IMG/VR virus record: IMGVR_UViG_2695420487_000017 | Direction: 5' to 3' (one strand) | DNA from: a virus | Lineage: Duplodnaviria; Heunggongvirae; Uroviricota; Caudoviricetes | Length of the DNA stretch: 12,931 nucleotides | Made by a program: the position numbers | Shown: one piece after another, positions 6,001-9,000 of the stretch | How the letters are laid out: each line of letters opens with the position of its first letter | Numbering within the stretch: the first letter of the stretch is position 1

Positions 6001-9000
6001 AAAAGGTTGACTCCACTGATCCAGAGAGCTTCAAAGTGCAAGTGAGAAATGTTGACTCCGATCTAAGAATATCGTGCATAGTACAAGATGTTTTTCTCGA
6101 CGCATCCGAGCATAAAAAAGCTCTTCAGCAAGCTGAGTGGGATAGAAAACCAGTTCATTTGTCAATCAACGCAAAAGAACTAGATGGTGAAATAAAGTCC
6201 GCGATAATACTTTATGTCAAAGAGATAACATAATCCTCATCCCGGCCTCAGCGCCGGGTTTTCTTTGCCTCACGATCCCCACATCTAAAAACACATAACC
6301 AATTGTATTTGTTGATGTAACTCGCTAAACCATGCAGTTATGATCCCTGCCGCATAACCTTCATCAGCCACATTTTCAAAAATAAATTTCCTTATATATC
6401 AGAATCATACTTCGTAGAGTTAATAAATCACCAAAATTCGTACCAATAGTTCTTGATAATGTCGAACTATTGGTTCATTATTATCGTCATCAGCAGGACG
6501 CATTACTCACCAGGGCGGTGAATATACAACGATTCGAATATGAATCTACGGCGCTGACAAAGCGCAATAACCAAAGTGAACTTTGGGGTGTGGTGAAGGG
6601 TTCATGGACGGGAATATGTCGCACGTAAAGCGGCGAGGCCTGCGGGACTATTGCCGAATTGAAGTAGGCCGAAACAGGTCGAAATGGGTCTCCCACCTAC
6701 CACACCACCAAAGTTCATCAGGAGGTCTATATGACACGCAGAACTCAGTTCAAAGGCAATTCACGTTCTCGTCGTCGTGAGCGTTTAAAGGCAAAGGCAT
6801 TAGCTAACGGCGTGCTGGCCCGCGAAGAAGCAATAAGTTCAGAAGTATTACACCGCCCTACTCTAAGCAGAGCGCAGATTCAGGCTAAAGGTACTCACGA
6901 AACGCCTGAGCGCATAGAAGACGCTAAGCCAATTAAGTTCATGGCACAGGACGTGATCTGGCAACAGAAAGAATACAGACGCAATCTGGAGCGAGCGGCC
7001 ATTGTGTACGCGAATGAGTTTGGACATAAGCAACCAGAAACTGGTGTATGTCTTCCAAACGTAGCCATTTACGCGGCAGGCTACCGGAAATCCAAACAAC
7101 TGACGGCGAGGTGACTTGTGTTGGTCGCCAGAAAATGAAATTAGGCAGCAAACCACTTATTTGAGGTGAGATATGACAAAATCATGGAGCGTACCTTTTC
7201 CTGAATCAGAAACTGAACATGATGGAATGCCTGTTTTCTGGAGATTCCAGGCGACAGTTGAAGAAGATGGGATAAAAATATTCGCACTTCAATATATAGC
7301 TTTTCATCAGACAGAGCATTATGCATGGTTGGTTCCTGCGCATTGGATTGTTAATTTTAAACCAGCACCAAATCAGTGGTTACAGGAATGGAAACAAAGG
7401 AGAAATAGATATGCAATTAAGAAAGTAGCAAAAAATGCAGAAAGATCTTTTGCATTCCCAACGAAGAAACTTGCCATTGAGAGTTTATTGCACCGGAAGA
7501 AATACCATTTAATGAGAATCAAACAAGATTTGGCTGTTGTATCAACTCTTGTTGATGGGATGAAGAATATTGATACATCAATACCAGATATTGAATATAA
7601 CTTTGGACACAACCAAGAAACAGAAAACTGGGTGTTTTATTAGTACGAATAAGCACTGTGTATTCATTCCAACGAGTGAATACACGGAGCAATGTCGCTC
7701 GTAACCAAACAGGAGCCGACTTGTTCTGATTATTGGAAATCTTCTTTGCCCTCCAATGTGAGGGCTTTTTTATATGCATACCAATAACGCTTCACTAGAG
7801 GCGTTTTCGTTATGTGTAAATAAATAAGGAGCACACCATGCAATATGCCATTGCAGGGTGGCCTGTTGCTGGCTGCCCTTCCGAATCTTTACTTGAACGA
7901 ATCACCCGTAAATTACGTAACGGATGGAAACGCCTTATCGACATACTTAATCAGCCAGGAGTTCCCAAAAATGGATAAAACACTTATGGCTATCCAGACT
8001 AAATTCACTATCGCCACTTTTATTGGTGATGAAAAGATGTTTCGTGAAGCCGTCGACGCTTATAAAAAATGGATATTAATACTGAAACTGAGATCAAGCA
8101 AAAGCATTCACTAACCCCTTTCCTGTTTTCCTAATCAGCCCGGCATTTCGCGGGCGATATTTTCACAGCTATTTCAGGAGTTCAGCCATGAACGCTTATT
8201 ACATTCAGGATCGTCTTGAGGCTCAGAGCTGGGCGCGTCACTACCAGCAGATCGCCCGTGAAGAGAAAGAGGCAGAACTGGCAGACGACATGGAAAAAGG
8301 CCTGCCCCAGCACCTGTTTGAATCGCTATGCATCGATCATTTGCAACGCCACGGGGCCAGCAAAAAAGCCATTATCCGTGCGTTTGATGACGATGTTGAG
8401 TTTCAGGAGCGCATGGCAGAACACATCCGGTACATGGTTGAAACCATTGCTCACCATCAGGTTGATATTGATTCAGAGGTATAAAACGGATGAGTACAGC
8501 ACTCGCAACGCTGGCAGGGAAGCTGGCTGAACGTGTCGGCATGGATTCTGTCGACCCACAGGAACTGATCACCACTCTTCGCCAGACGGCATTTAAAGGC
8601 GATGCCAGCGATGCGCAGTTCATCGCATTGTTGATCGTCGCCAACCAGTACGGCCTTAATCCGTGGACGAAAGAAATTTACGCCTTCCCTGATAAGCAGA
8701 ACGGCATCGTTCCGGTGGTGGGCGTTGATGGCTGGTCCCGCATCATCAATGAAAACCAGCATTTTGATGGCATGGACTTTGAGCAGGACAATGAATCCTG
8801 TACATGCCGGATTTACCGCAAGGACCGTAATCATCCGATCTGCGTTACCGAATGGATGGATGAATGCCGCCGCGAACCATTCAAAACCCGCGAAGGCAGA
8901 GAAATCACGGGGCCGTGGCAGTCGCATCCTAAACGGATGTTACGGCATAAAGCTATGATTCAGTGTGCCCGTCTGGCCTTCGGATTTGCTGGTATCTATG

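Follow-up and report, generated by a model that had tools for sequence, protein, structure and literature searches.

The early-left operon of phage lambda is a described counterpart of the locus considered here. Several lambda early-left products target host factors, with Kil acting on FtsZ, Gam on RecBCD, cIII on FtsH and Ral on EcoKI, while SieB-type proteins are membrane proteins expressed from a promoter of their own. In the present study we analysed a 12,931-nt stretch of DNA (hereafter the window) from the Caudoviricetes record IMGVR_UViG_2695420487_000017, in which the interval between the antiterminator gene N and cIII holds an AT-rich open reading frame (ORF) of 156 codons, followed by an RNA hairpin and an intrinsic terminator. 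The locus is probably best explained as a cargo gene of the lytic phase, encoding a protein of the HK97 gp45 type, behind which lies a separate module for the small RNA (sRNA) PreS. Two further descriptions are relevant to this comparison. Accessory genes inserted into otherwise collinear phage genomes have been defined as morons (Juhala et al. 2000, quoted in PMC3594210), an example being HK97 gene 15. The second is the Hfq-dependent lambda sRNA LPR1, renamed PreS by Silverman et al. (bioRxiv 10.1101/2024.10.31.621285). According to that preprint, lambda PreS is encoded between ea10 and ral with its 3′ end formed by the terminator tL2a, is ∼88 nt long and processed to ∼68 nt, and is produced during lytic growth and not in lysogens. 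The authors also report that the sRNA opens the ribosome-binding site (RBS) of dnaN, thereby increasing dnaN translation, and represses alaS, that full lambda DNA replication and phage yield need PreS, and that its sequence is present at an identity of at least 92% in 2,537 genomes.

The 156-aa ORF corresponds exactly to a single cargo cassette, flanked on each side by a conserved linker; its boundaries lie at the ATG and at the stop codon, and the cassette and the PreS module are two independent, separately inherited modules. The elements that define this arrangement are as follows.

7111-7175, + strand: left mosaic linker, comprising the N stop codon, a spacer, the RBS and a shared ATG.
7173-7643, + strand: cargo gene with an ATG start, encoding a soluble basic protein of 156 aa that corresponds to HK97 gp45 and 933W L0079 (PHROG 1636).
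7653-7776, + strand: right mosaic linker of 125 nt, recognized by cross-phage identity, equal to the conserved PreS module with its hairpin, the sRNA and tL2a.
7776, no strand: mosaic junction at which ea10/ssb is inserted in lambda, 933W and VT2-Sakai.

The cassette boundaries were derived from pairwise mapping and a seven-phage alignment. Matches to 7100-7800 were found in 332 phage records, 78 of which cover at least 80% of the 701-nt query, while the others match only its two ends. Sf101 and Gally share the left linker at 100% identity and VT2-Sakai at 94%, and in all three phages unrelated ORFs begin at its ATG. As the linker, including RBS and ATG, is common to phages with unrelated ORFs, the recombination junction lies exactly at the start codon. 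On the other side identity resumes 1-10 nt past the stop codon of the ORF (7644-7653) and extends up to 7776 in lambda, VT2-Sakai, Sf101, HK620 and Gally. The right linker displays 96-97% identity in lambda (34045-33920, the ral-ea10 intergenic region; 96%), VT2-Sakai and Sf101, ∼94% in HK620 and ∼90% in Gally; it is nearly invariant in the seven-phage alignment and stands behind a different cargo in each phage. In lambda the slot from N to the position equivalent to 7653 is occupied by sieB (on the opposite strand), orf28 and ral, in Sf101 and CUS-3 by ral, and in HK620 by hkaQ and the sieB-like hkaP, the latter on the opposite strand, while Sakai and Gally carry an 83-aa ORF (phrog_2471), to which Gally adds a 149-aa ORF (phrog_3054). 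Kinship of these cargos to gp45 was considered and rejected, all of them being unrelated. At the junction at 7776 the window, HK97, HK620 and Gally are empty and run straight on to tL2b and cIII. The N-to-tL2a interval is thus a cargo slot with precise limits, set at its left by a start codon in common and at its right by the PreS module; the cargos exchanged there comprise ral, genes resembling sieB and no fewer than six orphan families.

These data refine the initial annotation, in which the ORF was assigned to the lambda ral/sieB/ea10 position. The ral/sieB assignment is upheld by boundaries that are 94-100% identical to those of phages carrying ral or sieB-like genes, but ea10 occupies the next slot, past tL2a at 7776, which is empty in the window. 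The view that the ORF is an accessory gene riding the pL operon is supported by a horizontally exchanged cassette located on the pL strand after N, and the comparison of related prophages that the initial annotation proposed reveals conserved linkers and variable cargo.

The composition of the ORF is distinctive. At 36.1% overall and 29% at third codon positions, its guanine + cytosine (GC) content is below that of the window as a whole (47%) and that of the genes N, gam, bet and exo (50-53%), confirming the AT-rich character noted initially. A strong RBS (GAGGTGA, 7163-7169) precedes the start codon. Across 20 homologues of the protein, from at least six genera, 39 alignment columns are invariant. 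Between genera the proportion of synonymous differences is 0.75-0.92, indicating saturation, and that of non-synonymous differences 0.2-0.25, while among close copies the ratio of non-synonymous to synonymous substitution rates is 0.08-0.23. Saturated synonymous change combined with constrained non-synonymous change indicates, on this comparative evidence, that the ORF is a genuine gene, translated and held under purifying selection. It could be argued that the ORF is an untranslated or non-functional remnant, as the database holds truncated alleles of 60-112 aa. The full-length conservation in at least six genera, the substitution pattern and the strong RBS described above, a coevolution signal sufficient for a high-confidence structural model (see below) and the existence of intact copies in their thousands make that explanation scarcely credible. 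The initial annotation had named two findings that would speak against it, homology to a lambda early-left gene of housekeeping function and a lack of translation; no such homologue was found, and both the purifying selection and the RBS point to translation.

The encoded protein is 98-99% identical to, and of the same length as, HK97 gp45, 933W L0079 and Stx2-phage 86 orf57, and in these three phages the gene is located directly after N and ahead of the tL2a module. It matches phrog_1636, a PHROG of unknown function, over residues 1-156 of 156 (E = 3.3e-111). The gene is, therefore, a near-identical copy of a member of a catalogued hypothetical family and nothing new in kind; database names for every member of the cluster are ‘hypothetical' or ‘prophage protein'. 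The family is nonetheless widespread. Among 5,426 complete E. coli genomes, 561 (∼10%) contain matches that span at least 80% of the 701-nt query, and the full-length 156-aa protein is present in 83 phage records. Full-length homologues with 54-83% identity occur in Pectobacterium, Cronobacter, Brenneria, Rosenbergiella, Symbiopectobacterium and one Salmonella phage, and a profile search of 1.84 billion cluster representatives (50% identity) returned 91 proteins at E ≤ 0.001, mostly of 130-160 aa and with the alignment spanning most of their length. All 79 aligned family members match PHROG 1636, and many also match phrog_13631, 25384 and 28215, which are likewise of unknown function. Alleles that retain just the first 40-90 residues of the protein were observed in E. 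coli and Salmonella (phrog_18686 and phrog_37429); these truncated or chimeric alleles could be frameshifts or recombinant fusions.

Scans of the 156-aa protein and the 79 family members against Pfam, NCBIfam and PADLOC gave no credible match, in agreement with the initial statement that the protein has no recognizable motif. In PADLOC-DB v2 the protein itself produced no match, and its 79 relatives gave scattered single noise hits with E > 1e-3. A sequence search of the PDB identified nothing below E = 0.4. No functional data were found in the literature on HK97 gp45, 933W L0079, Stk and HK97, lambdoid accessory and anti-defence genes, or HK97 escape mutants. The accessory-gene screen of Silas et al. 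mentions neither HK97 nor 933W, and gp45 is not mentioned in ‘The moron comes of age'.

The genomic neighbourhood of distant sequence relatives is that of early or accessory operons, beside recT/yqaJ, erf, kilR or an integrase gene. In Salmonella phage NX263 the homologue is the first gene of an early operon and is followed, according to the annotations, by genes for a DNA-binding protein, a MarR regulator and a sliding clamp. Distant members in Pantoea phage Nafs113, a myovirus (3941-5456), and Pseudomonas phage Aurca01 (1234-5438) belong to accessory operons in which DNA methyltransferase genes lie a few genes upstream, and the Aurca01 member also adjoins an HNH endonuclease. These neighbours provide a weak hint of a tie to DNA modification or restriction.

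The structure predicted for the protein is well defined. An AlphaFold run based on 20 close homologues gave a predicted local distance difference test score (pLDDT) of only 56, but when the prediction was repeated with the 79-sequence family alignment the coevolution signal raised this value to 95.3, with a predicted template modelling score of 0.82. The model displays an α/β fold in which an acidic N-terminal β-meander is followed by a strongly basic core that ends in a 33-residue helix, and by a conserved C-terminal aromatic residue. The isoelectric point is 8.8 for the whole protein and 10-11 for core residues 61-131, the two ends being acidic. Lysine or arginine is conserved across the family at positions 24, 75, 83, 84, 87, 92, 108, 109 and 115, and the family signature comprises an N-terminal β-hairpin with a near-invariant Gly33 and Glu46-Thr47, an invariant Ala101, and a C-terminal aromatic residue followed by an acidic one. 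The conserved cationic surface suggests that the target of gp45 is a nucleic acid or an acidic protein. A metal-binding or catalytic site formed by His45, His49 and His112 was also considered and rejected, as these positions are half conserved in the wider family. The protein is soluble, the maximum 19-residue hydropathy (0.71) indicating no membrane segment. Comparison of the model with the PDB revealed no structural relative and no match to known regulators, while the BFVD viral structure library yielded 12 matches at E < 1e-3, all uncharacterized, from phages of Erwinia, Achromobacter, Delftia, Rhizobium, Sinorhizobium and Tenacibaculum, with a Cellulophaga phage just above the cut-off. Remote homology and structure prediction, which the initial annotation had recommended, therefore delivered a confident fold but solely uncharacterized phage relatives.

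Transcription of the gene can be considered in relation to three elements upstream.

6453-6481, + strand: pL-like promoter of the 933W type (early leftward), TTGATA-17-CATTAT, the sole sigma-70-like site in 6200-8300.
6499-6565, + strand: nutL, an exact match to the nutL annotated in the 933W record.
6731-7114, + strand: antiterminator gene N (Pfam N_peptide, E = 2e-15; phrog_271).

Over OL, pL and nutL the window and 933W share 98.6% identity. The 156-aa ORF is located on the pL strand, 58 nt downstream of N. A promoter scan of 6200-8300 identified no promoter-like site for the ORF itself and none between N and the ORF, and a terminator scan detected no terminator-like site from the N stop codon to the stop codon of the ORF. 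With no promoter of its own and no terminator ahead of it, the ORF should therefore share the early transcript of N. The first strong terminator downstream of pL identified by the scan is tL2a at 7748; since none of the tL1 type precedes it, a pL transcript of the window would meet its first terminator there. These features are consistent with an immediate-early pL RNA of ∼1.3 kb that would be made independently of N and carry nutL, N, gp45 and PreS/tL2a. In that case cI would keep the gp45-type gene repressed in the lysogen, and its expression would begin within minutes once the phage infects or is induced. The gp45 homologues of Cronobacter, Pectobacterium and metagenomic prophages, the other lambdoid contexts examined, are all co-oriented within the early-left operon, the gene order being N, the gene, cIII or kilR, recT or erf, and xis-int. 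It should be noted that the N ORF is intact at 127 aa in the window, whereas RefSeq (PGAP) shows a 69-nt pseudogene fragment labelled ‘regulator' in an identical E. coli genome (at 7947-8015 of that sequence); in view of the intact ORF the pseudogene label looks like an annotation artefact.

The RNA elements behind the cargo gene are the known terminators tL2a and tL2b and the published PreS sRNA.

7658-7685, + strand: perfect 12-bp hairpin with a 4-nt loop (CAAC) and no U-tract; stem GTGTATTCATTC / GAGTGAATACAC.
7687-7771, + strand: PreS/LPR1 sRNA homologue of 85 nt (87 nt in lambda), separated from lambda 34011-33925 by two substitutions and a 2-nt deletion.
7722-7739, + strand: PreS seed core of 18 nt, identical to lambda and equal to the segment removed in the published lpr1-delta-seed.
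7748-7775, + strand: intrinsic terminator tL2a, the 3′ end of PreS, with a stem-loop at 7748-7765 and T6 to 7771; HK620 tL2A maps to it base-for-base.
7786-7807, + strand: tL2b-type hairpin just upstream of cIII, from the terminator scan; HK620 tL2B maps to it base-for-base.

Judged by its sequence, 7687-7771 is a PreS/LPR1 homologue with an intact seed. Both substitutions relative to lambda are located in hairpin loops and the 2-nt deletion lies before the U-run, such that U6 directly follows the stem in the window while lambda has GA and then U6. The predicted fold of 7684-7772 consists of a 5′ hairpin, a single-stranded seed, a GC-rich terminator hairpin and a U6 tail, an architecture of the Hfq type. 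Relative to lambda no change affects the seed, the terminator hairpin or the 12-bp hairpin upstream, and the stretches complementary to dnaN are intact; the copy in the window, however, lies behind gp45 and is followed by tL2b and cIII without ea10, whereas the lambda copy lies behind ral. In the primer table of the preprint (bioRxiv 10.1101/2024.10.31.621285) the +1 of PreS corresponds to GAGCAATGTCGC..., as given by cloning primer P810, and the 18-nt seed deletion TGTTCTGATTATTGGAAA to primers P970/P971, the table also listing the M1/M2 mutagenesis primers. The stretch 7722-7731 can pair perfectly with the E. coli dnaN leader from −26 to −17, the site validated by the M1 mutant of that preprint. 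A second perfect complementarity, of 11 nt, was observed between 7737-7747 and the E. coli dnaN leader from −46 to −36. Among the annotations of related phages, the HK97 record labels the tL2a site ‘putative terminator'. An Rfam scan of 6200-8300 gave a single match, the cIII thermoregulator, PreS not being represented in Rfam.

The 12-bp hairpin is invariant in all seven aligned phages and ends 2 nt before the 5′ end of PreS. The 171-nt RNA from the stop codon of the ORF to just before cIII (7640-7810) is unusually stable (z = −6.3), none of 200 shuffled sequences being as stable. The hairpin may set the 5′ end of PreS during processing, or may stabilize or protect the 3′ end of the upstream mRNA; the passages of the preprint considered here make no mention of this hairpin or of PreS biogenesis. 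The initial annotation had described it correctly as regards position and the lack of a U-tract, but the stem is a perfect 12 bp and not 9 bp. It had also placed a canonical terminator at 7748-7772, which agrees with the stem-loop and T6 of tL2a. That this terminator is private to the 156-aa gene proved incorrect, as it belongs to the PreS/tL2a module shared with lambda, of which the hairpin is also a part.

A possible functional link between cargo and sRNA was considered, in which the protein works with PreS, in its processing, stability or delivery to Hfq, as a single unit. The gene and the sRNA are directly adjacent and PreS is, in effect, derived from the 3′ untranslated region of the gene's mRNA, with the hairpin between them. 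PreS, however, follows completely different cargos with its identity little changed, one of them being ral in lambda, the phage in which the sRNA was shown to function; the Cronobacter homologue of gp45 is followed by a different terminator and then by cIII, all within 95 nt; and the gene and PreS have separate mosaic histories. As each occurs without the other, a joint function is highly improbable.

Comparison with the described occupants of the slot reveals shared position and little else. Like lambda ral, the 156-aa gene is carried in the cassette slot between N and PreS/tL2a and would be a small, non-essential accessory gene transcribed from pL. Ral, in contrast, is 66 aa long, the hhalign probability between the family profile and Ral is 0.1%, there is no Pfam match, and no terminator precedes the 156-aa gene in the window. 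The lambda ral gene lies beyond tL1, as judged from the lambda map and from the tL1 annotation of the HK620 record. Lambda SieB and HK620 HkaP likewise occupy the N-to-tL2a slot, but their genes are on the opposite strand, there is no similarity in sequence (hhalign probability 0.6% against SieB), and the 156-aa protein lacks a membrane segment. Measured against the moron concept of Juhala et al. (2000), the gene conforms in its AT-rich composition (36% versus 47-53% GC) and in its presence or absence between otherwise collinear genomes. It departs from that concept in having no promoter of its own detectable by consensus scan, in being followed by a terminator that belongs to a separately conserved module, and in replacing other cargo such that no DNA is added to the genome.

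The timing expected from pL, the soluble and basic character of the protein and the lack of a match to any defence model argue against a gene that protects the lysogen and for an effector of the lytic phase. The gp45-type protein would most likely be a non-essential accessory factor of that phase, whose conserved basic surface binds a target that is polyanionic or belongs to the host. The initial annotation had suggested a defence gene, and a protein that is expressed by the prophage and blocks incoming phages, in the manner of SieB, RexAB or HK97 gp15, would suit both the slot, in which lambda and HK620 carry sieB-type genes, and an AT-rich, horizontally acquired composition typical of morons. 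Such a role is improbable, however, given that the gene is co-oriented with pL so close behind N with no promoter-like site of its own, whereas lambda sieB and hkaP are on the opposite strand. In addition the protein has no membrane segment, neither it nor its 79 relatives have a credible PADLOC match, the profile comparisons with Ral and SieB are negative, and the fold family extends to phages in which no lysogeny genes are seen in the region of the hit. The suggestion of a defence gene is thus not retained. For a cargo gene of the lytic phase, a counter-defence or host-takeover role, analogous to Ral in role and not in sequence, is a tentative possibility. The main rival to such a role is regulation within the phage: a small protein that binds nucleic acid would adjust the early programme of the phage itself (for example the fate of pL/pR transcripts, the choice between lysis and lysogeny, replication or recombination), host immunity not being its target. 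The basic, helix-rich core with Lys and Arg residues conserved throughout the family, the immediate-early position beside N and upstream of cIII, and the relatives that adjoin recombination or replication genes, including the NX263 homologue at the head of its early operon, are all consistent with a regulator. Conversely, the protein contains no recognizable DNA- or RNA-binding motif and has no structural match to known regulators, and lambda, HK620 and Sakai do well without gp45. The cassette is also exchanged freely between phages that differ in their immunity and replication modules, which is a poor fit to a regulator adapted to the sites of a specific phage. This function is considered unlikely.

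Several observations weigh against the preferred explanation, a lytic-phase cargo gene acting on the host with a separate PreS module. Homology searches of the gp45 family point to no biochemical activity, and the slot shared with ral does not imply a common function, most of the other cargos being equally uncharacterized. An anti-restriction mechanism based on DNA mimicry, of the Ocr/ArdA type, is unlikely because the protein is basic, and the methyltransferase association derives from two genomes. With respect to transcription, a weak 5-bp terminator-like hairpin is located inside N (7033-7045), the sole other + strand site upstream of 7748, and the promoter and terminator scans were simple consensus searches, such that a weak internal promoter or a Rho-dependent terminator is possible. 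Finally, expression of PreS and its binding to Hfq in this prophage are deduced from sequence identity only.

The first pL transcript of this prophage, as in HK97 and the 933W-type Shiga toxin (Stx) phages, appears to carry N, a gp45-type protein and PreS. The gp45 family, comprising PHROG 1636, phrog_13631, 25384 and 28215 together with the structural relatives, could represent a new class of immediate-early effector whose basic face binds either nucleic acid or a host factor of immunity or housekeeping, a proposal that is advanced still more tentatively than the counter-defence role itself. If it were correct, an unrecognized counter-defence or host-takeover protein would be present in ∼10% of complete E. 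coli genomes and in many Stx phages. As a family that is abundant in pathogenic E. coli, strongly conserved and endowed with a confident fold that lacks a solved relative, gp45 is a sensible candidate for accessory-gene screens.

Several features of the flanking regions are also of interest. The translational thermoregulator of cIII (RF01804, 88.5 bits) is intact at the start of that gene (7825-7883). On the other side of pL, cI is 100% and OL/pL 98.6% identical to 933W, while the 933W stk cluster is replaced by a single gene. HK97 reportedly supplies a trigger of 933W Stk, described by Friedman and colleagues in 2011; gp45 was judged unlikely to be that trigger since 933W carries both genes. 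The gene in place of the stk cluster is a 332-aa orphan ORF (5235-6233; phrog_6191) followed by a terminator (6241-6258), located between cI and pL in the rexAB/stk position. It displays no Pfam, NCBIfam or PADLOC match. The 332-aa ORF should be transcribed with cI in the lysogen and is a better defence candidate than the 156-aa ORF.

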